NCBI GenBank assembly: GCA_037917685.1
Contig: JAVCBU010000003.1
Coordinates: 128,001 to 192,000 of the forward strand
DNA length: 64,000 nt
Source: Thermoproteota archaeon
Lineage (GTDB): Archaea; Korarchaeota; Korarchaeia; Korarchaeales; JAOZGB01
Direction of reading: 5' to 3'
Shown: piece after piece, positions 4,678-63,022 of the stretch
How positions within the stretch are numbered: the first letter of the stretch is position 1
Layout: each line of letters starts with the position of its first letter
Translations under genes and position numbers: made by a program
The notes under the pieces: model-generated
The model's database searches: none
Told to the model about the DNA's origin: nothing
Seen by the model: only the letters and a program-made list of their open reading frames with translations

Positions 4678-5316
4678 CTAGCCTACGATTTTAAGTAGTG
4701 TCAACACAGCCCTCCTGGCTCCGAGCTCCGCTAGCCAGTGGTCGAAAGCAGTGCCAGCTACGATCGCATCCCCCTCCACGGGTTTAAGGGACATGATTAA
4801 ATCGTATGATCTAGGATATTCCTCTCTGAGGCTCCAAGAGACCCCTGGAAGGCGGAGTACCCCATCCCGGAATATGATGGTTGTAGCGCCCTTTGCACCT
4901 GCGAGTAGTGCAGCGTCTCTCAGTTCGAGCCCGGTCCCAACATTGTCTGAAGCACCTCTAATTATGAAGACCACGTCGCAGTCTGAGACTGTCAGTTTCC
5001 CAAGATTGAAGCGGAAGGGACCCCTAACCCTACTCCTAATGGCCTTAAGAACCGAGATTCCCTTCTCCGTCAGGTTGCAGCCCTTCCTATCAGTCCTAAC
5101 GAGGTTAAGACGTGACGTGTTTCTGATTATGCTTCTTACACTTCCTTCTCCTAGCCTCAGCATTGCTGAGAGCTGCTTTCTACCCCTAGGCCCGTCCTTG
5201 AGAGTATCCAGGAAAGCCCACACATGCTCCAGCCTGTAGCTCGGTGTAGGCCCGCGGCCAAGCTTTAAAGCATTTGATAGGATTTTAAAGGCCTGTGTGG
5301 CATCCATAAGGCGCAC
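4678..5316 (-). CDS. DUF4443-like winged-helix putative transcription regulator
   Basis: GRKQLSAMLRLGEGSVRSII HTH followed by GLELRDAALLAGAKGATT. Confidence 0.75.
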   Translation of the reverse strand: MRLMDATQAFKILSNALKLGRGPTPSYRLEHVWAFLDTLKDGPRGRKQLSAMLRLGEGSVRSIIRNTSRLNLVRTDRKGCNLTEKGISVLKAIRSRVRGPFRFNLGKLTVSDCDVVFIIRGASDNVGTGLELRDAALLAGAKGATTIIFRDGVLRLPGVSWSLREEYPRSYDLIMSLKPVEGDAIVAGTAFDHWLAELGARRAVLTLLKIVG

Positions 5317-5325
5317 CAGTTAACT

Positions 5326-5904
5326 CTATAATAGTTTATATGTAGTGGATTTAAAGCTTGACTTAAGTTTGTTTACAAGATGGGAAGCTATGAAGAATAT
5401 AGTGACGTTTGAAAGTAGATGTATGGCTGTGAAAGGCAGTGCTGAGATGAGAGCTAGGATAGGTTTAACATGGAAAACAAGCATGAATGATATGTTTGTT
5501 AATAAGTCGTAGATTAGAGTGGCGACAGCTGCGAGGAGGCTTATCTCGATGGCAAATTCAACTCCCTCGTGGGAAATTCTTCTGCTTATGCAGCCTATAG
5601 CTGAATAGATGGTTTCAGATAGTGCGCAGGCTACCAGTATACCCACATTAAAGCCGTAGGGGTTGAATGTCCCGTATATGAGCCAGGAGATGCATGCTAC
5701 GATCGTCCCAGGCAAAAAGCCGTAGAGGTAGCCGGCAAGGAAAACAAGGAAGTCCAGAAGATTAACATTTGGTATTGAGACTAGTGCATAGCTTGAAGCG
5801 ATGCTTGCAGCTGTAAAAAGCGCTATAGCACATATCAGCCTTGCTTTAGGGTTTGGGAAGCGGTGATACTGAGGTGTCCTCGTAGTACCAGACAAGGATG
5901 TCAC
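5326..5904 (-). CDS. ECF transporter S component (probably cobalamin, CbrT-like); start uncertain
   Basis: About 5-6 hydrophobic helices, IPNVNL motif, YDLLTN, HLLSN; next to the DUF4430 gene. Confidence 0.75.
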   Translation of the reverse strand: MTSLSGTTRTPQYHRFPNPKARLICAIALFTAASIASSYALVSIPNVNLLDFLVFLAGYLYGFLPGTIVACISWLIYGTFNPYGFNVGILVACALSETIYSAIGCISRRISHEGVEFAIEISLLAAVATLIYDLLTNISFMLVFHVKPILALISALPFTAIHLLSNVTIFFIASHLVNKLKSSFKSTTYKLL

Positions 5905-6274
5905 CGTCTGTAATCACATACCTGTCGGCGGCTACCGGCCCCTCATACCAGTCACCCATCCAGTACCACCACATCCAGTAGTAAGGATGTTCGCTGCAAA
6001 GGTCGTTAATGCAGTTTACGAAAGCTCCCATGCCTGGATATGATGTGTAGTTTACATCAGCAACTGCGCATGTAACGTCTAGGAGTGTAGAGCCTGCAGC
6101 TATCTTTGTCGAGTTGTGCCATTCTATAGGCCCGCCTTTCACCTTAAACCCTATTGAAACAGTTATAAATCCTTCCTCGCTTGTTCTAGCCTTCATATAG
6201 AAGTTAGCAGCGAGAGCCGATGCTACAATCGCCCACAAGAGGAGAACTAGACTTAAAGCCTTATATTTATCCAT
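5846..6274 (-). CDS. DUF4430 / transcobalamin C-terminal-like membrane-anchored binding protein
   Basis: N-terminal TM; YPGMGAFVNCIN, YYWMWW, VAADRYVITDGDILVWYY. Confidence 0.85.
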   Translation of the reverse strand: MDKYKALSLVLLLWAIVASALAANFYMKARTSEEGFITVSIGFKVKGGPIEWHNSTKIAAGSTLLDVTCAVADVNYTSYPGMGAFVNCINDLCSEHPYYWMWWYWMGDWYEGPVAADRYVITDGDILVWYYEDTSVSPLPKP

Positions 6275-6283
6275 ATGATCACC

Positions 6284-6304
6284 ATGGATGGATTATCCAT
6301 CCAT
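6284..6304. promoter_or_regulatory. Perfect palindrome, candidate operator of the DUF4430-ECF-DUF4443 operon
   Basis: ATGGATGGAT-T-ATCCATCCAT lies between the minus-strand TATA-like TTTATATTTT (6305-6314) and the ATG at 6274. Confidence 0.65.
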
Positions 6305-6492
6305 AAAATATAAAGGTTTCTAGGCCTCACCCACCAGCAAGATTCTAACAGTCAGTATGAAAGTTAAAATCCGAGAAGAGACCGAAAAAGCCCATTCTAC
6401 ATTCAAGACGTCTACAAGAATGCCGAGAGCATGGGAGATATAGAGTTTAAAACGCCTCTACAGGGGAAGAATCTAAACTATATTCAATATGT

Positions 6493-6801
6493 GTCGTTAC
6501 CGAACTCGTTAAGGGATTAACATTAAAGGAAGCATGGACCAAGATAAGCTGGAAGCAAGTGTCAGACGAGCTAGGTGGACTTCCGCCTGTCAAAAGACAC
6601 TGTAGCGTGTTGGCCGTAGGCGCACTAAAGCGTGCCATCAGAAAGTATTATACTGAAATAAAAGGCTATAAACCCGAATGGCTTCCTTCAGATCTTACCC
6701 CAGACGAGAAACAGGCTCTAGAAGCGAAGGAGATGATAGACAGGTTGTATAGGAGGTTTAGGAATGGGAGCGAAAAAGATAGACTTGACAATACAGCCTG
6801 A
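6493..6801 (+). pseudogene. iscU: IscU/NifU Fe-S scaffold, 5'-truncated
   Basis: VTELVKGLTLKEA...LGGLPPVKRHCSVLA present; N-terminal CGD/FGC motifs absent, in-frame stop at 6448-6450. Confidence 0.75.
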
Positions 6802-6994
6802 GGGATGCGTAAATCCGCCAATTGTAAGGCTTACACGAGCTATTAAAGAGCTTAAACAGGGCGAAGAGATAGAAGTAATATACAAAGAAGACCTGATACC
6901 GCTAAAAACCCTTCAGCTCCTATCAAGAAAGTACAAGCTAATCCTAACCCAGATTTCACCTAATACATGTATTCTGAAGAGGGGGGATTCATGA
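6764..6994 (+). CDS. TusA/SirA-like sulfur carrier protein
   Basis: IDLT..EGCVNPPIVRLTRAIKELKQGEEIEVI; lies between iscU and sufS. Confidence 0.75.
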   Translation: MGAKKIDLTIQPEGCVNPPIVRLTRAIKELKQGEEIEVIYKEDLIPLKTLQLLSRKYKLILTQISPNTCILKRGDS

Positions 6995-8214
6995 TAGACG
7001 TAGAAGCCGTTAGGAAAGACTTTCCAATACTTGAAAGAGAGATAAACGGTCAGAAAATAGTCTATTTCGATAATGCCGCATCCTCTCAGAAGCCGGTTCA
7101 AGTAGTGGAAAAGATGAGAGACTTCTACTATAACACGTACGCAAATGTGCATCGAGGTGTACATACACTCAGCCAGGAAGCATCCGAACAGTACGAAGAA
7201 GCCCACGCAATCATAGCATCACTTATAGGCGCCCGGAAGGATGAGATAGTCTTCACAATGGGGACAACAGACTCTTTAAATATGCTTGCCTACGGCCTTG
7301 AATCCACGTTGGCAGGAGGGGACGAGATAGTAACTACTGTTATGGAGCATCATAGTAACTATCTCCCATGGAAGTTTCTTGCAGAGCGGAAAAAGGCGAA
7401 ACTCAAGATTATAGATGTAGATGATGAGGGCAGACTAAACTATGCCCAGCTAGAAAACCTAATCTCGCCAAGGACGAAAATTGTTGCCGTATGTCATATG
7501 TCAAATGTAACTGGCTTCATTACTGATGTAGGAAAAATTGCTAGGATAGCCCATGAGACTGAAGCTTACGTCGTCGTTGACGGGGCACAGTCTGTTCCCC
7601 ATCTGCCTGTGAATGTTAAAGAGCTTGATATAGACTTCATGGCCTTCAGCGGCCACAAAATGCTGGGGCCTACGGGAATAGGCGTACTCTATGGAAAGAA
7701 AGATCTCCTCGAAGAACTAACTCCATACCGGTACGGTGGTGGAATGATAAGTAGGGTAACACTTTCAGAAGTCGAATTTCAAGATGTCCCATGGAGGCTT
7801 GAGGCTGGAACACCAAACATAGTTCAAGCAGTAGGCCTGGCGGAGGCGGTGAAATACCTCAAGAAGGTGGGAATGGAGAACATAGAGAGCCATGAGAAAC
7901 AGCTGGTTAAAAAGACCCTAACCCTAATTCAGGAGGAGCTTAAAGACAAGATAAAAATAGTTGGGCCTCAAAACCAGCTGGAACGTGGGGGCCTCGTGGC
8001 ATTTACAGTCAAAGGACTAGATCACCATACTGTAGCATCCCTACTAGACGCCTACGGTGTAATGGTTAGGAGCGGTAAACACTGCGCACATCCCCTTCAT
8101 GAAAGGCTGGGCCTAGAAGGAACCGTAAGGGCATCCTTCTACCTATATAACACGGAGCATGAAGTTGAAAGATTTATACAAGCATTAGCCGAAATAGTTG
8201 GTACAGTAGATTAG
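6991..8214 (+). CDS. sufS: Cysteine desulfurase, SufS subfamily
   Basis: YFDNAASSQKP, DGAQS, SGHKMLGPTG (PLP Lys), RSGKHCA. Confidence 0.95.
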   Translation: MIDVEAVRKDFPILEREINGQKIVYFDNAASSQKPVQVVEKMRDFYYNTYANVHRGVHTLSQEASEQYEEAHAIIASLIGARKDEIVFTMGTTDSLNMLAYGLESTLAGGDEIVTTVMEHHSNYLPWKFLAERKKAKLKIIDVDDEGRLNYAQLENLISPRTKIVAVCHMSNVTGFITDVGKIARIAHETEAYVVVDGAQSVPHLPVNVKELDIDFMAFSGHKMLGPTGIGVLYGKKDLLEELTPYRYGGGMISRVTLSEVEFQDVPWRLEAGTPNIVQAVGLAEAVKYLKKVGMENIESHEKQLVKKTLTLIQEELKDKIKIVGPQNQLERGGLVAFTVKGLDHHTVASLLDAYGVMVRSGKHCAHPLHERLGLEGTVRASFYLYNTEHEVERFIQALAEIVGTVD

Positions 8215-15802: not shown

Positions 15803-15932
15803 GGAGGCTAGGCGGCCATAGCAGCCGGGGATACGCCCGTACCCATTCCGAACACGGAAGCTAAGCCCGGCTGCGTTCCACGGAGTACTGCGGTCCGCAA
15901 GGACGCGGGAAACGTGGAAGCCGCTAACCTCC
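15803..15932 (+). rRNA. rrf: 5S rRNA, stand-alone
   Basis: GGCGGCCATAGC, CCCGTACCCATTCCGAACACGGAAGCTAAG, AGTACTG...GGGAAA; ends pair (GGAGGCTAG / CTAACCTCC). Confidence 0.97.
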
Positions 15933-37108: not shown

Positions 37109-39331
37109 ATGAAAATAAGGATACTCACCCCTTTAATAGTACTCCTATTGCTGTCGTTTTCATACTGGAAGATAAGGGAGAAGGCAGGAACCGAAACACC
37201 CGTCAATCCAGAGTCGCCTGAACCAACGGCTACCCCTACATCGGAGTTTAAAGAGTACTTCCCATCCCAGTTTGAACCTGAAAGTCTATCATACACTCCA
37301 AATGCGCCACAGTATCAGCTCCCCCTTGAACCTGTGTTGATCGAGAACTATGACAAGTTTCTCGAGTATATCCCACTCTCAGACGGCGCAATAGATAATA
37401 TAAGACAGTACGGCTTCACGATAATAGCCTCTCCCCACGATGACATAATTGAGGCCTGCAGGGACGTGAGTATGAGGGGAATACCCCTATACGTTACTGT
37501 TGACACAGTTCTGCATGTCTACCACATCCTATTTGATAACACCCTCCAGCAGATCGAGGAGGAAAGGTTCTACATGCTCCTAGAAGACCTTACTAAAAGC
37601 ATGCTGTCATCGATGGCTAACGAATACGAGGCAGCAACGGATCCTAGGCTTAAAGAAGCAGCGAGAAGAAACGTAGCCTTCTTCAGCGTTGCCCTATCCT
37701 TACTTAACCCGGACCACCATCCACCCGACTATGTTAAAAACGAGGTTGAAGGCGAGTTAGAACTTATAGGGGAGCACAGCGGTTTCTCCCCTAGTCCAAT
37801 ATTCCATTACAGGGAGGATTACAGCCAGTACGTGCCAAGAGGCCATTATACGAGGAGTGAAAAGCTTGGAAGATACTTCAAGTGTATGATGTGGTACGGA
37901 AGGATGGCATTCCTACTCAAAGGCTGTGAAGAATGCTTTGTTTCAAAAGAAGACGCCGAAATAGCTACAATCCAGGCCATAATGATCTCAGACAAGCTTT
38001 ACAAGGTTGACGTTAAGGGTAGAAACGCCATGGACATATGGCTTGAAATATACCAGGTGACATCTTTCATGGTAGGCTATGCAGACGACCTTACACCCAT
38101 CGAATACAAGCAAGCAGTAGACAGCCTTTACAACGGAAACTTCACCCTTGAAATGTTAGCCAGCAGCGAGGTACTTCTAAACATAAAAGCCGTACTCGCC
38201 CAAATGAGAAATCCAGAGATCTACGGTGGAACAGGAAGATGTAATGTAGAGCCGCCTATAACTGAGGAAAAACTCGACGAATGCCTCTCCAAAAGTAAGG
38301 GTATGAGGTTCATGAGTCAGAGATACGTGCCAGACTCGTACATCTTTCAAAGGCTTGTAGCCCCCTCCGTAGGGGCATATAGAGGCAGCGGTAAACCATT
38401 CACCATGGAATACACCGCACTCGGGCCTGCAAGGGTGTTCCCAAGGGGGCTAGACCTGATGGCTGTTCTAGGCTCAGACCTCGCGCTTGAAATACTGCAA
38501 GAGGAGGGGGACACTGAATACGAAAGGTACATGGATAAGATGTCTCAGCTCAGAGACGAGTTTTCATCCCTAACATGGCAGAATTGGCATAGAAACCTGT
38601 ACTGGTCATGGCTATACTCTCTAAAACCCCTCCTAGAAGAGTACGGAGACGGGTATCCAACCTACATGCAGACAAGGATGTGGGGTAAGCGTCTCCTGCA
38701 GACAGCGTTAGCCTCATGGGTGGAGCTAAGACATGACACAATCCTCTACGCCAAGCAAAGCTACACCCTGGTGTCGACTGCTGTTCCACCAGGCCCTGAA
38801 CCAGCAGGGTACGTTGAGCCAATTCCAGAGCTCTATAAGAGGCTGTCAGACCTGGCGAAAATGACCTGTAACGGCCTTAATGAGATGAATATTATTAATG
38901 AAACTGTATATGCAAAGTTCAAGTCTCTTGCAGATATACTTGACAAGCTTACTCAGATCTCGATTAAAGAACTGGAGTCCCAAGAGCTATCACCAGACGA
39001 ATACAACTTTATAGAGGCGCTTCCAGACCTGCTTGAAGGCATATGCACAGGTTATAAGGCTGAAACCCTCAAGACAACACTGGTAGCAGACGTACATACG
39101 GATATAAATACTGAAACCGTCCTTGAGGAGGCCATCGGGTACGTAGACCTTATTATAGTTGCGGTTAAACTCCCCGATGGAAAGATTATAATGATGGCTG
39201 GCCCAGTCCTATCATACTATGAGTTTAAACATCCTCTAAGCAGTAGACTTACGGATGAGGCATGGAGAGAAATATTAGACCAAAACCCGCCTGAAAGACC
39301 AAAATGGGCCTCCACGCTTCTAGGCGAGTAA
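37109..39331 (+). CDS. DUF3160 family membrane-anchored protein
   Basis: EDYSQYVPRGHYT, YFKCMMWYGR, WVELRHDTILYAKQS, GYVEP, RLTDEAWR. Confidence 0.9.
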   Translation: MKIRILTPLIVLLLLSFSYWKIREKAGTETPVNPESPEPTATPTSEFKEYFPSQFEPESLSYTPNAPQYQLPLEPVLIENYDKFLEYIPLSDGAIDNIRQYGFTIIASPHDDIIEACRDVSMRGIPLYVTVDTVLHVYHILFDNTLQQIEEERFYMLLEDLTKSMLSSMANEYEAATDPRLKEAARRNVAFFSVALSLLNPDHHPPDYVKNEVEGELELIGEHSGFSPSPIFHYREDYSQYVPRGHYTRSEKLGRYFKCMMWYGRMAFLLKGCEECFVSKEDAEIATIQAIMISDKLYKVDVKGRNAMDIWLEIYQVTSFMVGYADDLTPIEYKQAVDSLYNGNFTLEMLASSEVLLNIKAVLAQMRNPEIYGGTGRCNVEPPITEEKLDECLSKSKGMRFMSQRYVPDSYIFQRLVAPSVGAYRGSGKPFTMEYTALGPARVFPRGLDLMAVLGSDLALEILQEEGDTEYERYMDKMSQLRDEFSSLTWQNWHRNLYWSWLYSLKPLLEEYGDGYPTYMQTRMWGKRLLQTALASWVELRHDTILYAKQSYTLVSTAVPPGPEPAGYVEPIPELYKRLSDLAKMTCNGLNEMNIINETVYAKFKSLADILDKLTQISIKELESQELSPDEYNFIEALPDLLEGICTGYKAETLKTTLVADVHTDINTETVLEEAIGYVDLIIVAVKLPDGKIIMMAGPVLSYYEFKHPLSSRLTDEAWREILDQNPPERPKWASTLLGE

Positions 39332-40600: not shown

Positions 40601-40714
40601 GGTCCTAGTCAAATGGTCTCCCACGCTTCTAGGCGAGTGGCACTCAGCTCTTCAGCTTTCAGTATATAATCATTTTATCATTCCAAAGCAGAGTTATATG
40701 GTTTGGTGGGTGGG

Positions 40715-41596
40715 GTGAATTTCAAACTCGCCGTTAGCCTCCTTTTAAACATCATACTCCTCTCCACCCTGCTTAATCTCTACATCGTGAACCAGAGACT
40801 GAAAGCAGATGTTGAACTAGTAGCCGAGCAGAACCGGAATCTTTCGATGGAGGTTGACAGACTTATGAAGCAGGTTGAAATATTGAATCTAAAGATAAAA
40901 TACTACGAGGACATAGCCAAGCAGGGAAACGCCTTTGTACCATACGGGGAAGTCGTAGGCTCATCAGAGATGTACGTCTCAGCCGTTAGGACGGTATCCT
41001 ACGGCTTCTTCAACTATGAATACGAAGGTGTAATACTTATACTTAAAGTGGAGCTGAGGGAGGGTGAAGGCCGAGTACTCGTGAACACGAAGCCAAAGAT
41101 AGGGATAGAACTCCAAGCGAGCGCTGAAGAAGCATTCCTCGCCGCGGAGAAATATCTAGCTGTAAACCTGTCCAGCTACGATGTGATCATTACCATAGAG
41201 GCAGGTGAGCCTGTTGAAATAGTAGACGGCCCAAGCATAGGCTCAGCAATAGCTGTGTCCATAGTCTCAGCATACACCGGGAAACCAGTACGGGGAAATG
41301 CCATTGTAACCGGAACAATCAGCAGGGACGGGCGTATAGGTCCAGTAGGCGGAGTCGCGGAGAAAGCCATTGCAGCAGCGGAGCAAGGCATGGAACTATT
41401 CATCGTCCCAAGAGGCCAAGAGTACGTTACAATCTCAGTCCCCAGAACATATAAGGCAGGCCCAGGCATAACCATAACATACTACGAGTACAGACAGGTC
41501 TCCCTCCAAGAATACATTCTAAGCCACGGCTACAACATGACTGTAACATCAGTTTCAACCCTATCAGAGCTTGTAGAACTATTAATAAGCGGATAA
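40715..41596 (+). CDS. Membrane-anchored Lon-like (S16) serine protease without ATPase domain
   Basis: N-terminal TM and coiled coil; VDGPS, TGTI..DGRIGPVGGVAEK Ser-Lys dyad. Confidence 0.88.
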   Translation: MNFKLAVSLLLNIILLSTLLNLYIVNQRLKADVELVAEQNRNLSMEVDRLMKQVEILNLKIKYYEDIAKQGNAFVPYGEVVGSSEMYVSAVRTVSYGFFNYEYEGVILILKVELREGEGRVLVNTKPKIGIELQASAEEAFLAAEKYLAVNLSSYDVIITIEAGEPVEIVDGPSIGSAIAVSIVSAYTGKPVRGNAIVTGTISRDGRIGPVGGVAEKAIAAAEQGMELFIVPRGQEYVTISVPRTYKAGPGITITYYEYRQVSLQEYILSHGYNMTVTSVSTLSELVELLISG

Positions 41597-43146: not shown

Positions 43147-43562
43147 TCATTCAAGAAGGAAGCAATGCCCGCAACAACATGTTATCCAGCAGCTTAATCT
43201 TATAGCTGGCCCGGCTTAGTTAAGATGCCGCCAGCAGGATGACATCCCATAAAAGTTACATAACACTCTTAGAAACATTTCAAGAAGGCGACTCTCAGAC
43301 TTTAAACTAACGCCACATTACAACCAGCTAGCTATAGCCGTCAAACTACAGTCAAGCTTTAGAAGGGAGGCATGGATTCACACGGTTAGTCCAGCCTAGG
43401 CTGTCCTCATCAAGAGATATACGAAATAAAATGTTTATTTTATCCTTTCAAACTTACAGAGGCGGGGGTTTAAGATCCCCGGAGACCGTTGGATTCTACA
43501 ATTTCCCACAGGGCGGAAAGAGAATCAAATGTTTAAATATTTCGCTTCCTAAACTAGACTTG

Positions 43563-44579
43563 ATGCGTGTAAGCAAAGTACTAATACTGTTTCTTATGTT
43601 CCTAGTCCTAGCAGCCTTCATATTAGTAACCTGGAGAAAGAGGAGTAAAGGCATATCAGAGAATCTAGCAGGCAAGGTACTCTGTAACATTGTCTATAAT
43701 ACTGTGGACGGTGTAAATCTGAGGCTGGACATATATTACCCTGAAGATATTGGAAGCCAGCCTCTGCCAGCCGTTGTCTATGTACATGGAGGGGCATGGG
43801 TCTCAGGAAGCAAGGAGGGGGGTTCCGGGATGCGTGACCTCCACGCTCTTGTGGAGAACGGCTTTATAGGAGTATCCGTAGATTACAGGCTTGCTCCTGA
43901 ATATGGGTTTCCAGCCCAGATAGAAGATGTTAAATGTGCGATAAGATTTCTAAGGGAGAATGCTGAGAAATACCATGTTGACCCGGATAGGATAGGTATC
44001 ATGGGTACAAGCGCCGGGGGGCACCTTGCAGCGCTCGCCGGGCTCGCTGACGAGTCCTGCGGCTTTGATGTTGGGCCTTACCTGGAGCAGTCGAGCAGAG
44101 TACAGGCTGTAGTTGACATGTTCGGCCCAGCAGATCTCACAGTGGTGCCAGAGGACAAGAGGGAGCTGATAATAGGGGTTTTCAAATCCGTAGACCCGGA
44201 GACGCTTGCCTGGGCCAGCCCTATCACCTACATTTCACCGGATGACCCCCCATTCCTGATAATCCACGGGGAAAACGACCGTGTGGTCGATGTTAACCAG
44301 TCAATCAGGCTTTATGAAGCTTTAAGACAGGCAGGCGTGGAGGTAACTCTGGTCATCGTCAAAAAAGCCGGACACGGTCTCAAGCCCTCAGGTGGAACCC
44401 CAGAACCAAGTCGTAGCGAGGTAACAGCTTTAATAGTTAAATTCTTCGCTGAAAAACTTAGCCTCCGACATAGATCACAACTATACTCGATTTTCGGCAG
44501 CCTTCACCCAGTGAAAGTATTGAATGCCCAATTTAATCTGTGCGAGACGCCTGTAAAGCGGTATGCAATGATACCTTAG
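43563..44579 (+). CDS. Membrane-anchored alpha/beta hydrolase (esterase/lipase)
   Basis: [29 protein letters not shown]; N-terminal TM. Confidence 0.92.
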
Positions 44580-45127: not shown

Positions 45128-46855
45128 ATGAACCCTGAATGCTTTTTACGTGTCCTCCCCCTGTTCCTAGCCATGCTGATCCTGTATACACCTGCTTACA
45201 CGGTTGTTTCCCCTCCAAGCCTGCTTGTTTTGGCAAATTCGGTCGACTACAGCCTTGCTGGGGGCTTGTTCGACTACCTCGAGGCTGAGGGAGTTAACTA
45301 TACCCTGATCCAGCTCCCTGGGGACGAGTTGAACCCTGAATGCTTGGATGAGGACATGGCAAGATTTGACGAGGTTAAGGCGGGCTACAGAGTGATCCTG
45401 ATACTCGGGGGCCACAAAGCATACGGGTGTGTCGGGTTTATAGTTGGTGGCATTCTGAATGAGAGTGAGAAGCGAACACTGGAGCGGGAGGGAAGCGTCG
45501 CCGTTTTCGTCAAGAGGGACGTCTGGGCTGAGGGGCAGACCGTGCTTGTAGCCGCGGGTAACACTAGAAATGAGACGTGCGAGGCCCACCTTTACTGCAG
45601 AGAGATGGTCAGGGACATAGTTAAGTATACGTTGCTGTACGTGATACCCCATGACCTTGACGGATACCCTGATCCATACAGTGTCTGGGAGCCCCCTGGC
45701 TCAGACTTCAATAATGTAACGGTGCCTGGTGGGTACTCTTCAAGGGTATGGCTTATAGAGGGCGAAACCTTCGTAGTTGCAGCAGTATTGGACATGGGAA
45801 CAGAAGACAAGGCTATAGGTGCGTACAGGAATCTCTCCAGAGGCCACAACGAGACCTCAATAGACATCGGAGAAGAGGGATTCTACGACGAGGAGAACAG
45901 CAGCCTCGGAACGGTAGGCTTCAGACTCGTAGGATTCAGAAGAGGGAGATGCGTGGCGATAGTCGGCGGAGGAATACTCAGCAACACCTCAACTCCACCT
46001 TCAAGAAGCCTACTGACAGACCTAGCACGGAGAATCGACGACGAGCTTCAACACAACATACGATGTGTATTCGAAGGTGACATAGCCCTAATCCTATCAG
46101 TCCAAGCCGTGCCCCCAGTGAGACATGGCGGAGGCGAGCTACAGGCTCCGATAGGCGCGCCTGTCAAGGTTACGTCGAAAACAATAAAGGTGAATATGAT
46201 AGGTGCTGGCGCGAACCAGGGGAAAAGATACGTCGGCTACATAAAGCTAAGATTCAACGTATCAGAGATCGGACGGGCCATGGAGTGTCCCGAGGGATGC
46301 CCTTACCTTGAGGTAAGGGTTTACATCATGGAGATCCACATAGACAAGAAGGCCGACGATGGAGACGACAGGCTATTCAGAGACGGTTGCGACCCCATGA
46401 TAGGCGGGACAATAAACCTCTACTTCAAATGCCACGGCGAGTTACTTGAAGCGAAGCAGCTAAGGTTCGTGACAGCGCAACTCAGGGGGTTAGACGGCAA
46501 GGGACACACAATAACCGAATTCTATAACGGGAGAACCATGTACTCAATCCGAAAATACATCAATAAAACCACCGGATGCGCTGATGAGATAACTGTCACA
46601 TGCGACCTCCTTCTGAGAGACAGTGACGACGGCGATCTAGCCGACATCCTAAACGTTATAGTCAGCCTTGCTTTGAAGAAGGCAGGCGCAGGAAAGGCTG
46701 CTGGAGCCGTCCCAAAGCAAATAAATACACTGAAGAAAAAGGGCAGGGACACAACTGGGCCTAAGCCGTTCCAAATACTCAGAAGTATAAGTGGGAACGA
46801 CGTGGGGGAAGCCCACCTAGAGCAACCAACAAAAATATATCCTCCAGAGGAGTAG
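45128..46855 (+). CDS. Secreted multidomain hypothetical protein
   Basis: Signal peptide; N-terminal LANSVD...ILGGHKAY...VLVAAG cell-surface-type domain; Asp-rich C-terminal domain. Confidence 0.7.
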   Translation: MNPECFLRVLPLFLAMLILYTPAYTVVSPPSLLVLANSVDYSLAGGLFDYLEAEGVNYTLIQLPGDELNPECLDEDMARFDEVKAGYRVILILGGHKAYGCVGFIVGGILNESEKRTLEREGSVAVFVKRDVWAEGQTVLVAAGNTRNETCEAHLYCREMVRDIVKYTLLYVIPHDLDGYPDPYSVWEPPGSDFNNVTVPGGYSSRVWLIEGETFVVAAVLDMGTEDKAIGAYRNLSRGHNETSIDIGEEGFYDEENSSLGTVGFRLVGFRRGRCVAIVGGGILSNTSTPPSRSLLTDLARRIDDELQHNIRCVFEGDIALILSVQAVPPVRHGGGELQAPIGAPVKVTSKTIKVNMIGAGANQGKRYVGYIKLRFNVSEIGRAMECPEGCPYLEVRVYIMEIHIDKKADDGDDRLFRDGCDPMIGGTINLYFKCHGELLEAKQLRFVTAQLRGLDGKGHTITEFYNGRTMYSIRKYINKTTGCADEITVTCDLLLRDSDDGDLADILNVIVSLALKKAGAGKAAGAVPKQINTLKKKGRDTTGPKPFQILRSISGNDVGEAHLEQPTKIYPPEE

Positions 46856-47460: not shown

Positions 47461-50400
47461 TTACTGTGTCACCAGTATTGTTTGTGAACTGGTTTGATAT
47501 CTGTTCTCCGGGTTATAATAGTCCTGTACACTTGCCGGCGGCACTGTTGCCTTGAGAGGGTACTTGGCTTGGATTTTAAACTGGAATGTAAACGTTACAC
47601 CTGGCTTTATAGCCCCTGTTAGGAAGTCTATCCTTGTGGGGCTATGTACTTCGTATCTTTCGAGGTATGGGGATGTGCTTATAGCCTCTTCGAGTGAGGT
47701 AATGTTTACTGTGAAGCCTGGTGGGAGGCCTATTGTTATGAACAGCATGTTTATGGTTGGGAGTTGGCCTGTGATGCTTGGTATTCCGAGGTATGCCACG
47801 TAAACCTTTACCGTTACAGTTCCGCCCTGGCTTATCATGGTGCTGTCAAGCTCCCTCCTAATGATGAGAGGCTTGTCTGAGACTGTTATTCCAACAGGGT
47901 TCCCAACCGCTACAGGTCTTCCTTCTATGAGCGCCGCCGGCCCTGGGAAAATGTAGTCTCCTGGTATCAGGCCTGTAGCCTCGTATTCTATGACAGCCGT
48001 GCCTCCAGGCTCAACTGTGACATGGAAGGTTAAGACACCCTTGTCCAGCTGGCTGGGCGAGGTGTTTGATATGAAGCCTGCTGGTAGGGGGTCTCTTATC
48101 CGGAGTGTTAGAGTTCTATGCTCCCGGTTTGTCACGGTTAGCCTGACCTTTACGGGGACTCCTACCATTGTTACGGGTATGCCTGCGATGGTTTCAACAT
48201 GCTTCTCCACCGTTATCCTCCTTTCAACGCCTTCCCCAGCTATGCTTACCATGGCTGGGTTCGCCTCAGCCTTCAGGTTTCCCCCGTATCTCCCCTGGTA
48301 CAGGAGCATGTACTCCACGGTGGGGTTGATGGTGTAGGTTCCCTCCTCCTCCGCCTTGAAGTATAGGGTGACGGTTTCAGGCTCTCTTAGCTCTGTGATG
48401 TACCTTGTCCCACCCCCGAGAACCTGCAGGCCCATTGGGGGCCTAACTGTGACCCTCACCATCACAGGGGTGAGGTCTCCTCCCGGAGGGGTGACGGTAA
48501 CGTTTAACTGGAATATTTCCCCCCTTCTAGCCCTCTGGTTCAGCGGGGTTGCTAAGCATGTGACGTTGTCTCGCAGCCACTGCCTTACGACAAGCTGGTA
48601 CATGAATAGGCCTTTCCCCGTAAGCCTGATGGTTACATTGTTCATGCCTGTCCGTAGCCATGCTGCTATGGGGAATATTCTCTCAACGTCTGAGGTTTCG
48701 GGTGTTACATGTTCGCTGTACGCTAGGAGCCCGTTTACTGTTATGGTTATGGTTGCGTCTGCTTCAGCTACCCCCTTCCTCTCTGCAATCCTTACTAGGA
48801 GCTCTAGGAAGCCGCATGTGTCGCTTGTGGTTCTTATCCATCCTCCTGGGGATCTGTGCTTAACAAGCCAGTCCACTATTTTCCTAACCATGTCATGGTG
48901 TCCTCCAGCCATTACTAGGGCTATCCCGGCGTAGGCCGTGTTTTCGGTGTCGCCCGCGAAGCTGCTGCCCTTAGGAAAGTGTATTCCATATTCGTCTTCG
49001 ACGGCGAGGCTTAGAAGGCTGCTTACAGCCTTCTCCAGCGCCTGGTCGCCCTCCGGGACGTCTGCAAGCTTGAAGCATACTATCGAAAGTGCTAGGCCAT
49101 ACGAGTCTTCAATCCTGTCATGTAGAACTCTACTTCTAAGGTAGTTCAGTGCTTTCGCAACCTTTGGGTTTTCAGGTGGCACCCCCGACCTCAGTAAGCC
49201 CCTGAGTACGAAGCCTGTCATCACGAACTCGTCAGGCTTATAGGAGCCGTGCCCGTAGAACCCTACTGGCGGGAAGCTTCCATCCTGGTTCTGCTGCTCC
49301 ATTATCCATGCCTGAAGCCTTTCTACAACCCTGTCGTCAATGTCAAACCCGGCCTTTTCGGCTTCCCCAAACGTGTTCAGGATCCAAGCAGACATTCCAA
49401 GGTTGTCCTCGTCCGTTGCATACCAGCCCATGCCCCCCGACGGGTGCTGCCTCGAAACAAGGGTTTGGAGGCCTGTCTGAGCGTAGGCTTCCAGTTTAGC
49501 CCTTAACTCCGGTGTTAGCTTTCCCTCCCTGTCAAGGTAGTTTAGGATGAGGATGTCAGGTATGAGCCTTGAAGAAACCTGCTCGTTGCACCCTCCGGGG
49601 AATCCTATGAGGGCTTCTAGGCCGCCGATGAACATCGACTCGTAGCCTGGGGATATTCTTACAAAGGCTTCCGTGGCATTTCTAATTGCTTTTGGATGAA
49701 CGAGGAAGGCTTCTGAGACATCTGATTTTAGATCCCCGTTCCTATTGATCTCCATGGGGAGGCCGTTAGGCTCGACTTTAACCTGCCTTCTAACCGCGTC
49801 CAACCTGTCAGCCGCCTCAGCATAGACTGTCAAGTAGTGTAGGCCGGGCTCTAACGCCTTAATCCTCCAGTAGACACCCATCACAGAGTTGGCGGGAACG
49901 GTAACCCGCTTCCCCCCATCATCCAATAGTCTAAACCATTTTTCAGGCTTAATTCTCAGTGTAGCATTTAGCTCCCTTCCTGCATAGTTGTATACAGCTA
50001 CCCTTAGGGATATCTCATCGTCCTGGGTAAGCCTAAGCGGGATGTCCGGTTCCACGAAGAAGTCCTTGAAAACCCTTATGGATCCCTGCCCGACGGCTAT
50101 CCTCCCATCCTTTGTCGATGCTATGGCCTTCACACTCCAGGTGGTGATCGTATGTGCCATCACCAGGTTTACCTCTGCATGCCCGGATACCGGGAGGGAG
50201 GGGCTCCAGAACAGTGTTTCAGGGAAGAACCATCTAACCTCCTGGGCTGCTGATCCAGCTTCCCGGCTGCTCGCCTCCTCATATACTTCCTGGTCCCCAC
50301 CAGCTACCTCTGGAGCCACCCCCTTCCTAACAAACTCAGGACCCATCATGACCGGCCTTGGAACCCCCCATCTCTCGACAAGTATGCCTCCCCGAGGTCT

Positions 50401-52527
50401 AAATATTATGGTGTAGAGCACCATTGCTGAGGGCAGTGCTATCGGTACTTGTAGGAGCAGGCCTATGGCGACGAGAACCTTTCCCCGGCTCTTCCTCCCG
50501 GTCAGTAAGTAGTATAGCCCTGCAAGTAGTGCAATCGTTGGTGTAGCTGCGACACCTGATATGCCGGCTAATATCATGGCTGTGTTTATCCTTTTTTGAA
50601 GGTTTTCAGCCCTTTGAATCTCCATCTGCAGGCTTGAAAACTCGTTTACGGACTCAAGTTCATGTATCTCCCACTGTACTTCCTGATACTCCTCTGAAAG
50701 CGTGTAGAAAACCTCTTCGAAGCCCGGCCTCTGCTCTGCCAGGGCGAGGAGCGAGCTGTCCACTATGGATATGCAAACTACGCAGTCTCTAACTTCGTTC
50801 CCGTCAGCGTCTGAAACCGCTATTCTGATGCGGCAGTCTTCACCCGGCAGGTATTCATCCTTGTCGGGCTCAACCTCTACCTTCATATCCCTCTTAGGCT
50901 GGACGTCAACCTTTAACCAGTCTGCGTAGAACTCCATGTCAGGGCCTATGGCGTAGGCCCTTACCAGGACGTAGGGTGCGTAGGTGTCTAATGCTACAAT
51001 TTTAAACTCTGCAACCCCGTCTTCAAGCCTTTCCGAACCAGTGTATAGTGTTGACTTGTCCAGTGGGCTTATTACATCCAGGTAAACCCATTTCGAGCTG
51101 ACATTTAGGCTTGGCTCCTTAACAAGTACCTTTATGTCCATCTCTTCACCCACCTTGTAGGATGGCTTGTCGCTTCTAACCCATACTATAAACCTTTCAC
51201 CCATGGTTTTCGACCTGAAGCTGAAGCTGTACTCCCCATAGTACCCCTGAGCATCAAGGCATCTGGCTAGGAGCATGATCTCCCCGGTGTCCGGCGGCGC
51301 TATAGACAGTGATGCTACCCCGGCCTGGTCTGTTAGGAGGGTGTGCCTGGACAGGAGGCTTCCGTTCCCGGTGAGCACCTCAACATTTAACGTTGTATTC
51401 CCTACAGGTTTACCATCGGGATATCTGACCACGAAGTATATTGGGTAATCTTCTCCGGGCATGAACTCTTTCTTCAACGTTACAGCTCCAACTATGAATG
51501 GTGTGTCACTTATCACAAGCTTCCTGGATGCCGTCTCTACATGTCCTGAGCCGTCGATCACGCTTGCATTCACCACGATCTCAGCCTTCCCTCTTGAAAT
51601 GTCCAGGCCTACCAGGTATGATGGTGCATCAAACGTGAAGCTCATAAGGCCTTCCCTGTTTGTGCTACCATAGTACTGCCACACAGTTGTCCATTCCCCG
51701 GTGTATGCCTGCACGCTTAAAGTTACGTTTCCAACTACGGGCTTACCGAAGAAGTATGAAGCGTTAACCCTTCCATAGATCTTCTCGCCTAGAAGATACC
51801 ACTTCTTCTGGAATTCAAGCTCAACCTTGAACTTGGGAAGGACGTATTCCCTGATGTTCACAGTAACTTCCTGTGTATAGTCTCCTATCTCAACCCTAAC
51901 CCTATATCTACCCTGTTTCAGCTCTTTTGAAAGCGGTATGTTGCAGAAGGCAACGCCATACTCGTCCGTTTTAAGGAATCGCTTAAATACCCTTACACCG
52001 TCGGGGTTTACAAGGCTAACTGTAAGGCTGGTGTTTGGGCAGGCCCTATAATCCCCGTTCGCCTCCCAGACCAGCGCTCTAAAATGTAGAGTCTGACCCG
52101 GCTGGTACCAAGGTTTATCGGTGGTTATAAGAACCCGGAAAGACCTCCGGATCCTAACTGGAACCTCAACCCTTCCCTCCATGACACCTGAAGCCTTCAC
52201 CACAAGCTTGTAGGCACCCGGTTCGATGTTTGGCACCCTAAGTGACGCGTAGAGCGAACCATCATCGCCGGTTAAACCTTTAAATACCGGTGCAACCTTT
52301 GACCCGTTACTGTTAACAAGGTAAGCCTCCACCCTAGAGCTGACCGGGTTAGAGGCCGCCATGCTGAATGTCAAAACCTTCACAGATACGTTTCTACCTG
52401 GAACCCAGATTTCTGGGGCAACCACGCTTACGCCAGGCTTCAATACAAGCAAAAGCCTTCCAGTGTTGGACAATAGTAAAACCATGGTGAAAAACACCAA
52501 TACAGCGAGAATAACCTTCCTTTCCAT
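47461..52527 (-). CDS. Alpha-2-macroglobulin / thioester-containing protein
   Basis: TDKPWYQPGQ, EYVLPKF, DKPSYKVGE, VRWFFPETLFW, TITTW, thioester GCNEQ (49579-49590), C-terminal VQDYYNPE. Confidence 0.95.
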   Translation of the reverse strand: MERKVILAVLVFFTMVLLLSNTGRLLLVLKPGVSVVAPEIWVPGRNVSVKVLTFSMAASNPVSSRVEAYLVNSNGSKVAPVFKGLTGDDGSLYASLRVPNIEPGAYKLVVKASGVMEGRVEVPVRIRRSFRVLITTDKPWYQPGQTLHFRALVWEANGDYRACPNTSLTVSLVNPDGVRVFKRFLKTDEYGVAFCNIPLSKELKQGRYRVRVEIGDYTQEVTVNIREYVLPKFKVELEFQKKWYLLGEKIYGRVNASYFFGKPVVGNVTLSVQAYTGEWTTVWQYYGSTNREGLMSFTFDAPSYLVGLDISRGKAEIVVNASVIDGSGHVETASRKLVISDTPFIVGAVTLKKEFMPGEDYPIYFVVRYPDGKPVGNTTLNVEVLTGNGSLLSRHTLLTDQAGVASLSIAPPDTGEIMLLARCLDAQGYYGEYSFSFRSKTMGERFIVWVRSDKPSYKVGEEMDIKVLVKEPSLNVSSKWVYLDVISPLDKSTLYTGSERLEDGVAEFKIVALDTYAPYVLVRAYAIGPDMEFYADWLKVDVQPKRDMKVEVEPDKDEYLPGEDCRIRIAVSDADGNEVRDCVVCISIVDSSLLALAEQRPGFEEVFYTLSEEYQEVQWEIHELESVNEFSSLQMEIQRAENLQKRINTAMILAGISGVAATPTIALLAGLYYLLTGRKSRGKVLVAIGLLLQVPIALPSAMVLYTIIFRPRGGILVERWGVPRPVMMGPEFVRKGVAPEVAGGDQEVYEEASSREAGSAAQEVRWFFPETLFWSPSLPVSGHAEVNLVMAHTITTWSVKAIASTKDGRIAVGQGSIRVFKDFFVEPDIPLRLTQDDEISLRVAVYNYAGRELNATLRIKPEKWFRLLDDGGKRVTVPANSVMGVYWRIKALEPGLHYLTVYAEAADRLDAVRRQVKVEPNGLPMEINRNGDLKSDVSEAFLVHPKAIRNATEAFVRISPGYESMFIGGLEALIGFPGGCNEQVSSRLIPDILILNYLDREGKLTPELRAKLEAYAQTGLQTLVSRQHPSGGMGWYATDEDNLGMSAWILNTFGEAEKAGFDIDDRVVERLQAWIMEQQNQDGSFPPVGFYGHGSYKPDEFVMTGFVLRGLLRSGVPPENPKVAKALNYLRSRVLHDRIEDSYGLALSIVCFKLADVPEGDQALEKAVSSLLSLAVEDEYGIHFPKGSSFAGDTENTAYAGIALVMAGGHHDMVRKIVDWLVKHRSPGGWIRTTSDTCGFLELLVRIAERKGVAEADATITITVNGLLAYSEHVTPETSDVERIFPIAAWLRTGMNNVTIRLTGKGLFMYQLVVRQWLRDNVTCLATPLNQRARRGEIFQLNVTVTPPGGDLTPVMVRVTVRPPMGLQVLGGGTRYITELREPETVTLYFKAEEEGTYTINPTVEYMLLYQGRYGGNLKAEANPAMVSIAGEGVERRITVEKHVETIAGIPVTMVGVPVKVRLTVTNREHRTLTLRIRDPLPAGFISNTSPSQLDKGVLTFHVTVEPGGTAVIEYEATGLIPGDYIFPGPAALIEGRPVAVGNPVGITVSDKPLIIRRELDSTMISQGGTVTVKVYVAYLGIPSITGQLPTINMLFITIGLPPGFTVNITSLEEAISTSPYLERYEVHSPTRIDFLTGAIKPGVTFTFQFKIQAKYPLKATVPPASVQDYYNPENRYQTSSQTILVTQ

Positions 52528-52659
52528 ACAATTCTTCCACCCCTGCAAATTGGATTAAAAGTTATACTATAACTTCAACAAACGTTAAACCATAACCCCT
52601 AAGCCTAAGCTCCCCACAAGAACTACATATTATCCATAGTCTAGCCGTGGGGAAGCAGG

Positions 52660-52726
52660 AAATGTAAAGAATGAGGTTAAATGAATGAGGTTAAATGATG
52701 ATAAATGTAAAGAATGAGGTTAAATG
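52660..52726 (+). repeat. Short nested direct repeats
   Basis: AAATGTAAAGAATGAGGTTAAATG at 52660 and 52703; core GAATGAGGTTAAATG occurs three times. Confidence 0.85.
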
Positions 52727-61809: not shown

Positions 61810-62985
61810 GTGGAATTGAAAGCTAAAAGGTTTCTGGCTTTAACCCTTTATCTTATATTCACACACGCATACATATTATCTTCAGCATATGATATTGAAA
61901 CCATTGCCTATACTAGTACTCCACCATTTGTTGTTCATGTTTGGGTTAATAAGGGGTGCGGAGCCGAGTATACAGTTGGCGAGTCTATTACAGTATTCTT
62001 CTCCTCCAATAGGAATGCAACTGTCGAGCTTATAGCTTTCACTAGTAGTGGAGCGAGCTATCTATTCGTCGGAAACATTATAGAGAACGAAATATATACA
62101 TGGATGGGAAATGTTGGAACAACCCCCGGAGAAGTACTATACGTTCTCAGGGGTTGGAATAACACAGACTACTGTGAGGACTCATGCCTCATATACGTAG
62201 TTGAAATATCCGGCACTCTAACACTAATTGTCCGGGAGAAACAGTCAAACATCTCCTTAAATGGGGTAAAAGTATACCTCAACGGCAGCCTCCAGGGAGA
62301 AACAGGTGAAGACGGTACATTCACAATAGCAGGCCTCGAAACAGGCGTATACAACCTTACACTTAAGAAAACAGGATACTACACATGGAAGGGTATAGTA
62401 CAGATACATCCCGGGCAAACAACAGAAGTCTCAGCATACATGGAGAAAATGCCCGAAGTCGGCGACCTCAAAATCCTCGTGGTGGAAGAAAACACCTTAC
62501 AAAGCATACCCAACGCTCAGATATACATCGACGACCAAATGAAAGGAACAACCGGAGCATACGGCTCCATAACTATTAATAACCTCCAGGCAGGACCCCA
62601 TACAATAACAGTAATAGCAGAAGGATACCAAACATACGAATCTACAATAATGGTTAAGAAATGGAAGCTCAACACATTCATGGCAAAGCTGAAACCAATC
62701 ACTCAGCCTCCTACGACTCCTCCTCCTACAACCCAGCCTCCTACGACTCCTCCTCCTACAACCCAGCCTCCTACGACTCCTCCTCCTACAACCCAGCCTC
62801 CTACGACTCCTCCTCCTACAACCCAGCCTCCTACGACTCCTCCTCCTACAACCCAGCCTCCTACGACTCCTCCTCCTACAACCCAGCCTCCCGCCAGGTC
62901 GATGTACTTAAACACGGTTATAATACTTGCGGCTCTGGTTATAGTGTTATCTATAGCACTTGCGGTATTAGCGCTGAAGAGGTAA
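61810..62985 (+). CDS. Surface protein with two PEGA/CarboxypepD-like domains, Pro/Thr stalk and C-terminal TM
   Basis: Signal peptide, VYLNG..GET, YNLTLKKTGY, IYIDD..GTT, (TQPPTTPPPT)x6, TM plus KR. Confidence 0.85.
   Translation: MELKAKRFLALTLYLIFTHAYILSSAYDIETIAYTSTPPFVVHVWVNKGCGAEYTVGESITVFFSSNRNATVELIAFTSSGASYLFVGNIIENEIYTWMGNVGTTPGEVLYVLRGWNNTDYCEDSCLIYVVEISGTLTLIVREKQSNISLNGVKVYLNGSLQGETGEDGTFTIAGLETGVYNLTLKKTGYYTWKGIVQIHPGQTTEVSAYMEKMPEVGDLKILVVEENTLQSIPNAQIYIDDQMKGTTGAYGSITINNLQAGPHTITVIAEGYQTYESTIMVKKWKLNTFMAKLKPITQPPTTPPPTTQPPTTPPPTTQPPTTPPPTTQPPTTPPPTTQPPTTPPPTTQPPTTPPPTTQPPARSMYLNTVIILAALVIVLSIALAVLALKR
62701..62891 (+). repeat. 30-bp coding tandem repeat, 6 full copies plus a partial
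   Basis: ACCCAGCCTCCTACGACTCCTCCTCCTACA; only the first copy differs by one base. Confidence 0.95.
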
Positions 62986-63022
62986 ACATCAGAACCATGT
63001 AGAATAAACGTCTAACGCCACA

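Follow-up and report, generated by a model that had tools for sequence, protein, structure and literature searches.

The window analysed here is a stretch of 64,000 nucleotides from the genome of a Thermoproteota archaeon of the Korarchaeota (assembly GCA_037917685.1, contig JAVCBU010000003.1, positions 128,001 to 192,000 of the forward strand), and its subject is a single gene on the minus strand whose product belongs to the α2-macroglobulin (A2M)/thioester-protein (TEP) family and may be a protease trap held in the membrane by a hairpin of two helices. The open reading frame occupies 47461..52548 (minus strand), with a stop-free translation of 1695 aa beginning at TTG; residue numbers are counted from this TTG throughout, so that Met8 is the ATG at 52527. 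A Shine-Dalgarno-like run, GGGGTGG, lies just upstream of the ATG, and initiation there yields a product of 1688 aa which is identical to record P0002. The in-frame TTG at 52548 is the less likely start, and the boundaries 47461-52527 given in an earlier note on this DNA, which was made from the letters of the sequence, are those of the gene. The features of the gene, in order along the protein, are as follows.

47461..52527, minus strand: the whole A2M/TEP-family gene, 1688 aa, from the ATG at 52527 to the stop at 47461-47463 (open reading frame, translation and P0002)
52459..52515, minus strand: hydrophobic N-terminal segment, residues 12-30, a Sec signal peptide or signal anchor (Kyte-Doolittle 2.29 over 19 residues; helix 2-29 of the AlphaFold2 (AF2) model of the N-terminal half)
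50740..52134, minus strand: N-terminal macroglobulin (MG) ring of MG2, MG3, MG4 and A2M_BRD, residues 139-603 (Pfam; all-beta in the AF2 N-half model, with predicted local distance difference test (pLDDT) mostly 75-93)
50233..50733, minus strand: bait interval, residues 606-772, from the first half of MG6 to WFFPET, delimited on alignment A3 and made up of amphipathic helices, hairpin and disordered linker
50503..50583, minus strand: predicted membrane helix 1, residues 656-682, charge-free (Kyte-Doolittle 1.86; AF2 pLDDT about 58-68; 26% identity to the relative P0006)
50479..50502, minus strand: basic loop TGRKSRGK, residues 683-690, predicted to be cytoplasmic (sequence; the loops of relatives are also basic)
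50401..50478, minus strand: predicted membrane helix 2, residues 691-716, charge-free (Kyte-Doolittle 2.11; helix 679-709 of the AF2 N-half model; 27% identity to P0006)
50236..50400, minus strand: disordered juxtamembrane linker, residues 717-771, rich in Gly, Val, Glu, Arg, Ala and Pro (AF2 pLDDT about 30, no secondary structure; 27% identity to P0006)
49954..50217, minus strand: A2M domain (second half of MG6 plus MG7), residues 778-865, following WFFPET (PF00207, 2e-17; AF2 C-half model)
48796..49626, minus strand: thioester domain (TED), residues 975-1251 (PF07678, 1.4e-28; helical in AF2; identity 67-88% within the clade)
49579..49593, minus strand: GCNEQ thioester motif, residues 986-990, with the putative bond between Cys987 (49588-49590) and Gln990 (49579-49581); C, E and Q invariant in alignment A2
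49249..49251, minus strand: His1100, identical in phmmer alignments with TEP1, A2ML1 and CD109, and clade-invariant
48232..48561, minus strand: predicted extra beta-sandwich X1, residues 1330-1439 approximately, placed after the second CUB half and before MG8 (strands 566-675 in the AF2 C-half model)
47872..48219, minus strand: predicted extra beta-sandwich X2, residues 1444-1559 approximately (AF2 strands 681-793 of the C-half model)
47467..47868, minus strand: MG8/receptor-binding-type domain with VQDYYNP, residues 1561-1694 approximately (A2M_recep, 6.4e-8; AF2 beta domain with one helix; identity 57-95% within the clade)

The match to the family lies far beyond chance, as is evident both from the Pfam domains that score above cut-off (MG2 at 2.4e-29, TED_complement at 1.4e-28, A2M at 2e-17, A2M_BRD at 3e-15, MG3 at 2e-11 and A2M_recep at 6.4e-8, together with MG4) and from phmmer comparisons with the sequences of the PDB, in which human A2M, A2ML1 and CD109 are matched at approximately 1e-44 to 1e-46, TEP1 at 2e-36 and C3 at 2e-29. 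The ESM Atlas gave the same family assignment, and NCBIfam returned nothing meaningful for the protein. The structural and sequence hallmarks of the superfamily, namely an MG array with a bait-region domain, a TED which is set within CUB and followed by MG8, and a CxEQ motif, are all present, and each of the animal-type motifs to which the earlier note had drawn attention was located in the translation (EYVLPKF at 234, WFFPET at 773-778, TITTW at 800 and QDYY at 1675). Because human A2M is matched at about 1e-46 and E. coli YfhM (ECAM) at just 3.6e-7, in an alignment confined to MG2, the protein is on sequence grounds a eukaryote-like macroglobulin and not one of the ECAM kind; a search for the bacterial domains bMG3, bMG5-6 and bMG10 yielded bMG10 as its sole match, at 25.5 bits, which is below the cut-off of 26.2 bits. 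Full-length matches to a prokaryotic “eukaryote-like” A2M group, composed of uncharacterised proteins of metagenome-assembled genomes (MAGs) from Armatimonadota, Planctomycetota, Verrucomicrobiota, Anaerolineae and Thermoplasmata, have E-values of 1e-130 to 1e-179 at about 30% identity, and the alignment consensus indicates that MG3, A2M_recep, TED_complement and the bait-start motif PGxE..F/Y..L are common to the window protein and this group.

ANATO and NTR/C345C are absent from the 13 Pfam matches at E <= 0.01 and the protein terminates in MG8, so that it is A2M/TEP/CD109-like and not complement-like in the strict sense; the earlier description of an archaeal complement/TEP-like thioester protein accordingly stands as regards the family, the archaeal host, the motif and the His, and is over-read as regards a strict likeness to complement. 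The C-terminal region is further distinguished by X1 and X2, for which Pfam gives nothing above cut-off (weak BatD/DUF11-like and Filamin matches to X1 and a weak bMG10 match to X2 all lie below it). The thioester Cys is followed by 708 residues here and by 703 in P0006, compared to approximately 486-500 in the bacterial relatives and in P0038, and judged by these lengths X1 and X2 are peculiar to the clade of the window protein.

The intact GCNEQ motif and the His 113 residues downstream of its Cys, both reported previously from the open reading frame, were confirmed in the translation: His1100 lies in QDGSFPPVGFYGH, 113 residues beyond Cys987 and ten residues beyond the Gly of DGSF. The C, E and Q of the motif are invariant across the 43 aligned sequences of alignment A2. 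When the TED alone (residues 966-1257) was used as a phmmer query against the PDB and the five best alignments were examined, an identical His was found opposite His1100 in all five (three TEP1 alleles, A2ML1 and CD109), the best of these matches being that to TEP1, at 4.1e-20. The A2ML1 partner of His1100 is chain residue 1066 and the thioester Cys of A2ML1 is chain residue 952; since the latter is Cys-970, the offset between the two numberings is 18, and chain residue 1066 is therefore His-1084 of the A2ML1 precursor. According to Harwood et al. (PMC7864068), A2ML1 is a monomeric protease inhibitor, it uses His-1084 to conjugate proteases via hydroxyl groups, and this His corresponds to the residue that forms the acyl-imidazole in C3 and C4B; the same paper and PMC9156758 state that inhibition by A2ML1 requires covalent capture. 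By transitivity through A2ML1, His1100 would be equivalent to the C3/C4B His, and the alignment with C3 and TEP1 that the earlier note had given proves to have been right. A hint in the same direction is provided by the PDB table, in which the C4-B match reaches query 136/chain 1126, eight residues past the C4-A matches, an extension that would fit a matched His.

The His is not distinctive of this archaeal protein. A word-index search provided 96 aligned CxEQ proteins (120 listed matches and the query, with the identical P0002 dropped), in which the His1100 column contains H in 23 rows, N in 11, A in 6, Y in 3, D in 3, P in 1, E in 1 and a gap in 48; the gap rows are ECAM-like proteins which MAFFT could not align at this position, and His therefore occupies 23 of the 48 alignable rows. 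An exhaustive search provided a second set of 150 identifiers, consisting of 148 of the best 150 representatives, the query P0001 and P0007 (present twice), with P0044 left out because it has no TED. In a count anchored on the motif, which covered the 102 rows of this set with CxEQ and at least 150 residues beyond it (the window protein included, P0007 twice), His was found at Gly+10 in 36 rows and at Gly+9 to +11 in 49 of the 102 TED-bearing rows. Across this prokaryotic group, His is found at the position more often than any other residue. Within the clade of the window protein both CxEQ and His are invariant in all members seen, and many proteins of a bacterial group with the motif CFEQ carry His-x-Glu past the conserved Gly.

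Structure prediction agrees with the domain assignment. The AF2 model of the C-terminal half (residues 765-1695, from a 43-row alignment) has a pLDDT of 87.1 and a predicted template modelling score (pTM) of 0.79, and it presents in order MG7, CUB, the helical TED, the second half of CUB, two beta-sandwiches and an MG8 with a single helix. In Foldseek comparisons the template modelling score taken on the query (TMq) is 0.53-0.56 against native C3 (E about 1e-33) and 0.60 against native A2ML1 and CD109, compared to 0.26 against activated C3b, with an identity of about 15-16% in the structural alignment with A2ML1; the good fit to native forms and the poor fit to C3b indicate that the predicted state is the closed one, in which the thioester is shielded. 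The N-half model, with a pLDDT of 73, contains good all-beta MG domains, past which there follow helices with a pLDDT of 58-68 and then a tail of about 70 residues with a pLDDT of about 30, which extends to the second half of MG6.

These helices and this tail belong to the bait interval, to which Pfam assigns no family even at E <= 1. The interval opens with predicted amphipathic helices (model residues 602-659), which are followed by the two charge-free stretches, the basic loop between them and the disordered linker, and it is the linker (residues 717-771) which, in view of its predicted disorder, is the probable protease-accessible bait. The positive-inside rule, by which basic loops remain on the cytoplasmic side of a membrane, is well established, and would place TGRKSRGK inside the cell. 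Compared with P0006, the helices and the linker are the least conserved parts of the protein, at 26-27% identity, as against 57% in MG8 and 67% in the TED, which is the most conserved part; the helices nevertheless remain hydrophobic and the loop basic in the relatives, a retention of hydrophobicity at low identity that is consistent with anchors facing lipid and with a rapidly evolving bait.

Hydrophobic segments at the bait site are not confined to the window protein. Two are also present in P0003, P0004, P0006, P0038 and P0045 (the last two of Thermoplasmata type), and other relatives have 5, 6 or 9. The exhaustive search, for which residues 450-880 served as the query, produced 5202 matches at E <= 1e-3 and 287 at E <= 1e-30, and an FPET-type landmark was found in 141 of the best 150; with a segment defined by a hydropathy of at least 1.8 within the 480 residues preceding the landmark, 59 of these 141 landmark-bearing representatives have at least one segment, the numbers of proteins being 8 with one segment, 15 with two, 3 with three, 7 with four, 6 with five, 15 with six and 5 with seven to ten. 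The number is even in 39 of the 59, and with an even number of helices the two halves would lie on one side of the membrane. Tethering by a hairpin within the bait interval is a conclusion that we hold with good confidence, and a full-text search of a limited collection of the literature found no paper on membrane helices in a macroglobulin bait region.

The relatives differ considerably at this site. In the bacterial CFEQ group the bait site carries soluble inserts of 205-375 residues with zero hydrophobic segments, and the consensus of the insert in P0008-P0036 shows D.WG and S.GPD....T.DD. A subfamily of macroglobulin-like proteins of about 1140 aa (P0043, P0044 and P0048-P0052, with two loci of Anaerolineae MAGs, L011:2070-5990 and L012:8001-9722) has MG1-MG7 and six hydrophobic segments at the bait site, with no TED. 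A Planctomycetota locus has zero segments; no Pfam family corresponds to the six-segment module in the precomputed lists.

The reading that we prefer, with a probability of roughly 60%, is that the gene encodes a surface-tethered, thioester-dependent, His-assisted covalent protease trap. Sequence and fold prediction agree on a protein in which the MG ring, CUB, TED and MG8 adopt a native-like conformation. Following export, the two helices of the bait interval would form a hairpin through the cytoplasmic membrane, such that, to judge from hydropathy, loop charge and the relatives, TGRKSRGK would remain inside and both large halves would lie outside, with the molecule tethered under the S-layer. 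The roughly 55 disordered residues that link helix 2 to the second half of MG6 would be exposed as bait, and their cleavage by a protease would, by homology with A2M, A2ML1 and ECAM, set off a conformational change that uncovers the Cys987-Gln990 thioester. His1100, if it acts like the aligned His studied experimentally in A2ML1, would attack the thioester to form an acyl-imidazole, and capture of the activated carbonyl by a hydroxyl or an amine would then fix the attacking protease covalently to the tethered inhibitor. The likely benefit of such a device would be to shield the envelope of a protein-degrading sediment archaeon from its own secreted peptidases or those of its neighbours.

Protease genes adjoin the homologue in one relative. 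In the Thermoproteota MAG locus L010, two genes at 979-4657 (plus strand), which encode Peptidase_C25 (1.4e-46) and Peptidase_C11 (1.4e-57), lie immediately upstream of the homologue (5077-7476) and have its orientation; the former is of the gingipain type and the latter of the clostripain type. The genome of the window contains, outside it, three C25 matches and one C11 match, and its peptidases of these families include the loci G000:C14:1558-2673 and G000:C2:52956-54047. Extracellular C25 and C11 cysteine peptidases are typical of protein-degrading sediment archaea, and they would provide a plausible reason for an envelope-bound trap.

It is unlikely that the protein is instead a tagger of the complement/TEP type, in which a thioester tuned by His1100 attaches to glycans or proteins of a foreign surface, such as that of a virus or a nearby cell, or to the S-layer of the producer itself, so that the target is marked or immobilised and no protease inhibited. 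The His occupies the position it has in C3, C4B and TEP1, no PDB sequence matches the TED alone better than TEP1, the X1 and X2 beta-sandwiches could serve binding, and archaeal A2M homologues have been discussed in a context of immunity and conflict by Makarova et al. (PMC8416519). The earlier note had preferred surface tagging over a simple trap on the strength of the His; that preference is not supported, because A2ML1, a monomeric protease inhibitor, relies on the same His, which is moreover common in uncharacterised prokaryotic relatives, and His1100 consequently does not discriminate between tagging and trapping. In addition, Pfam finds neither ANATO nor NTR/C345C, there is no gene for a convertase-like or recognition partner nearby, and the hairpin, if real, would fix the molecule to the membrane of its producer and prevent its diffusion to a target.

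Equally improbable, in our estimation, is a secreted, soluble A2M that acts as a free protease trap and whose two hydrophobic helices lie outside the membrane and form, with the amphipathic helices before them, a compact insert at the site of the C3 ANA domain. The predicted amphipathic helices at the start of the bait interval, the soluble inserts that bacterial relatives carry there and the only moderate AF2 confidence in the hairpin are what such a protein might be expected to show. It is difficult, however, to reconcile a soluble insert with two charge-free stretches of 26-27 residues with Kyte-Doolittle values of 1.86 and 2.11 and a strongly basic loop between them, with hydrophobicity that is kept while sequence conservation is low, or with the 4-10 segments that occur at the same place in relatives and are incompatible with a soluble bundle. 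An archaeal cell, furthermore, has no outer membrane that would retain a soluble trap. A structural or adhesive envelope protein, whose MG/Ig-like array would act as scaffolding or bind detrital substrates covalently without being triggered by a protease, is very unlikely. The protein is large, has many Ig-type domains and shares the window with other surface proteins (such as the PEGA/CarboxypepD_reg protein at 61810-62985), and the TED-less six-segment relatives use the MG scaffold without a thioester; but within the clade conservation is highest in the TED and MG8, CxEQ and His do not vary in the members seen, and the predicted closed native fold shields the thioester in the manner typical of a triggered device.

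Several considerations weigh against the tethered covalent trap itself. Its proposed function is read from sequence and models, and the formation of the thioester, which cannot be read from sequence, is putative; Asn at the second position of the motif is rare, CNEQ being found in one of the 150 representatives (the close relative P0004), and the loop that carries His1100 (model residues 335-338) is the single poorly predicted spot of the TED, with a pLDDT below 50. The helices derive from a simple hydropathy scale and from AF2 models of moderate confidence (58-68), and the query of the exhaustive search contained them, so that hydrophobic relatives may be enriched among the best 150. No protease gene or conserved partner adjoins the gene in the window, and the adjacency to C25 and C11 genes is seen in one relative only. 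Opsonin-like tagging and, with lower probability, adhesion are also to be set in the balance as alternative roles.

The host is archaeal, as the earlier note had claimed: the 16S fragment of the genome (1.81 Mb in 22 contigs, 95% complete) scores 1012.9 bits as SSU_rRNA_archaea, the top family of its Rfam clan. The nearest named relatives of the protein are from two MAGs labelled “Thermoproteota archaeon”, at 50% and 48% identity, and the next are from Anaerolineae and Planctomycetota MAGs, at 22-30%. Among 41 related genomes the protein query matches three, its own and two from another family of the same class, with no match in 36 genomes of the sister family or in a genome of its own genus that is 66% complete. 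Pfam TED_complement matches four of 43 genomes of the phylum, the fourth by a fragment at a contig end which also has GCNEQ and FYGH. The distribution is patchy, and the incompleteness of MAGs limits claims of absence. The only sequencing runs listed as containing the gene are two DNA sediment metagenomes, possibly the source of the assembly, and no RNA run is among them.

An unrooted tree was computed from 43 rows chosen from the 120 matches for the presence of a TED and good coverage, with ECAM-like and TED-less proteins omitted and no outgroup, using 561 columns (MG7, CUB and TED) of alignment A2 and a quick IQ-TREE search under LG+G4 with support from the Shimodaira-Hasegawa-like approximate likelihood ratio test (SH-aLRT). 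The window protein groups with P0003-P0006 (support 99) and then with P0007 (100). The other groups are formed by the three eukaryote rows with a JGI protein named “CD109” (99), by the pair P0038/P0045 (99), P0038 being titled Thermoplasmata archaeon, and by a large group (98) which is labelled bacterial from its few named members; the branching order among the four is not settled by the tree. The protein thus lies in a clade of its own (SH-aLRT 99%) and is not nested inside a characterised bacterial clade, so that the nesting which the earlier note had named as counting against its interpretation is not observed, and the tree shows no special tie of the protein to eukaryotes. Horizontal transfer from animals or from a characterised bacterial clade was rejected as a simple reading, because the clade stands apart from both the eukaryote rows and the CFEQ group. 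The A2M gene has a G+C of 0.515 and a third-position G+C (GC3) of 0.571, compared to a window mean of 0.456, and since some neighbouring genes fall in a similar range, no conclusion about transfer can be based on this.

The A2M gene is a solitary one, flanked on one side by a convergent gene that encodes a secreted protein of 575 aa and on the other by a divergent metallophosphoesterase gene, and the neighbours are not conserved at the loci of the relatives; in G039 the downstream genes encode an ABC/FecCD iron-type transporter and a PIN protein. The convergent neighbour (45128-46855, plus strand) has an N-terminal hydrophobic signal and no Pfam family, and in its G+C (0.517) and GC3 (0.583) it resembles the A2M gene and departs from the mean of the window; the genomes G001, G038, G039 and G042 contain no convincing homologue of it (one weak match, E 3.8e-5). 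The divergent intergenic region is unusually long, at 862 nt, and contains, at 52660-52726, a 24-nt direct repeat in three copies (two identical and one at 79%) which lie 130-200 nt upstream of the A2M start and could be a binding site for a regulator.

Three genes of exported or membrane hydrolase type, all on the plus strand and with no evident link to the A2M gene, lie within 10 kb: that at 37109-39331 encodes a DUF3160 protein (8.3e-201), that at 40703-41596 a Lon_C (S16) protease-domain protein with a membrane anchor, and that at 43431-44579 an alpha/beta hydrolase of the BD-FAE/S9 type. The surface protein at 61810-62985 (plus strand) combines PEGA and CarboxypepD_reg domains with a long run of PPTTQ-type repeats, and a hydrophobic anchor lies at its C-terminus; an overlapping frame at 62661-63002, which reads the PPTTQ repeat as SYDSS, is probably not a gene. 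A lone 5S rRNA gene (85.2 bits) is located at 15808-15929 (plus strand), and no tRNA genes were found in the whole window.

Comparison with characterised members of the superfamily brings out both what is shared and what is particular to the archaeal protein. A2ML1 has the same MG-CUB-TED-MG8 order (E 6.1e-46; native TMq 0.60), CxEQ and the aligned His-1084, and it is a monomeric inhibitor that needs covalent capture, as is proposed for the archaeal trap; it differs in being soluble, with an ordinary bait region and CGEQ, where the archaeal protein has CNEQ, the predicted bait hairpin and X1 and X2. CD109 (PDB 8s3o) and TEP1 (PDB 2pn5 and 4lnv) likewise combine a thioester with the aligned His, and both would lack the extra domains between CUB and MG8, an argument based on the length of sequence beyond the Cys, which is about 500 residues in P0038 and the bacterial relatives, compared to 708 in the window protein. 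CD109 is held at the cell surface by a glycosylphosphatidylinositol anchor, which is C-terminal, in contrast to the internal helical hairpin predicted here, and TEP1 is soluble and acts as an opsonin. The likeness to C3 and C4B consists of a C-terminal half that folds like native C3 and of the thioester with the equivalent His, by way of A2ML1; the archaeal protein differs from them in having no ANATO, no NTR/C345C (Pfam) and no sign of a convertase system, and its sequence match to C3 is weaker than that to the A2M type (2e-29 compared to 5e-46).

ECAM is anchored as a lipoprotein and is paired in bacteria with a peptidoglycan synthase, a pairing that is irrelevant to the archaeal protein. 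ECAM and the Salmonella A2M (PDB 4rtd and 4u48) are very distant in sequence (E 3.6e-7 and 7.2e-6, in MG2 only), and the anchor of ECAM is an N-terminal lipid, where the archaeal protein would have a hairpin. In their role these bacterial type-I A2Ms would be similar, being monomeric, thioester-bearing, membrane-attached protease traps which guard the envelope (PMC4498604). Archaeal members of the family as such are not new. Makarova et al. 2021 described 27 archaeal A2M homologues in 24 genomes, whose features include a signal peptide, domains of Ig type and a CxEQ-bearing TED, mainly from Halobacteria and Methanomicrobia, some of them seen as bacterial imports and the whole as possible components of immunity (PMC8416519); the main text of that paper, whose list and domain schemes are in its supplements, contains no mention of Korarch-, Bathyarch- or Thermoplasmat- names, of the His or of an A2M membrane helix. 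What is new here relative to the known A2Ms is the predicted hairpin inside the bait interval, together with the two extra domains.

A more general proposal, which we advance tentatively and regard as doubtful, is that the hairpin would be more than an anchor, and that the proteins with 2, 4, 6 or more segments at the bait position (59 of the 141 representatives, some of them without a TED) may form a mechanistic class whose trigger is built into the membrane, in which the MG/TED switch would be coupled to juxtamembrane or intramembrane cleavage or to membrane damage and the archaeal members would be thioester-armed guards with His-assisted chemistry. If this is true, an archaeal branch that stands apart from the bacterial and eukaryotic groups would bear on the origin of eukaryotic TEP and complement chemistry. 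In animal innate immunity, thioester proteins act as covalent warheads, and the His that tunes them is usually discussed as a feature of complement and TEPs; since the pair of motifs is invariant in the archaeal clade and frequent in the prokaryotic group, the sequence comparisons suggest that the chemistry of thioester and His probably predates animals, or is at least widespread among prokaryotes. The helices of the bait interval, if real, would explain how a trap is retained at the surface of a cell that has no outer membrane, and they would point to a class of membrane-integrated macroglobulins which was not found described in the literature searched. Sediment archaea that feed by proteolysis outside the cell could plausibly use such a protein for self-protection.

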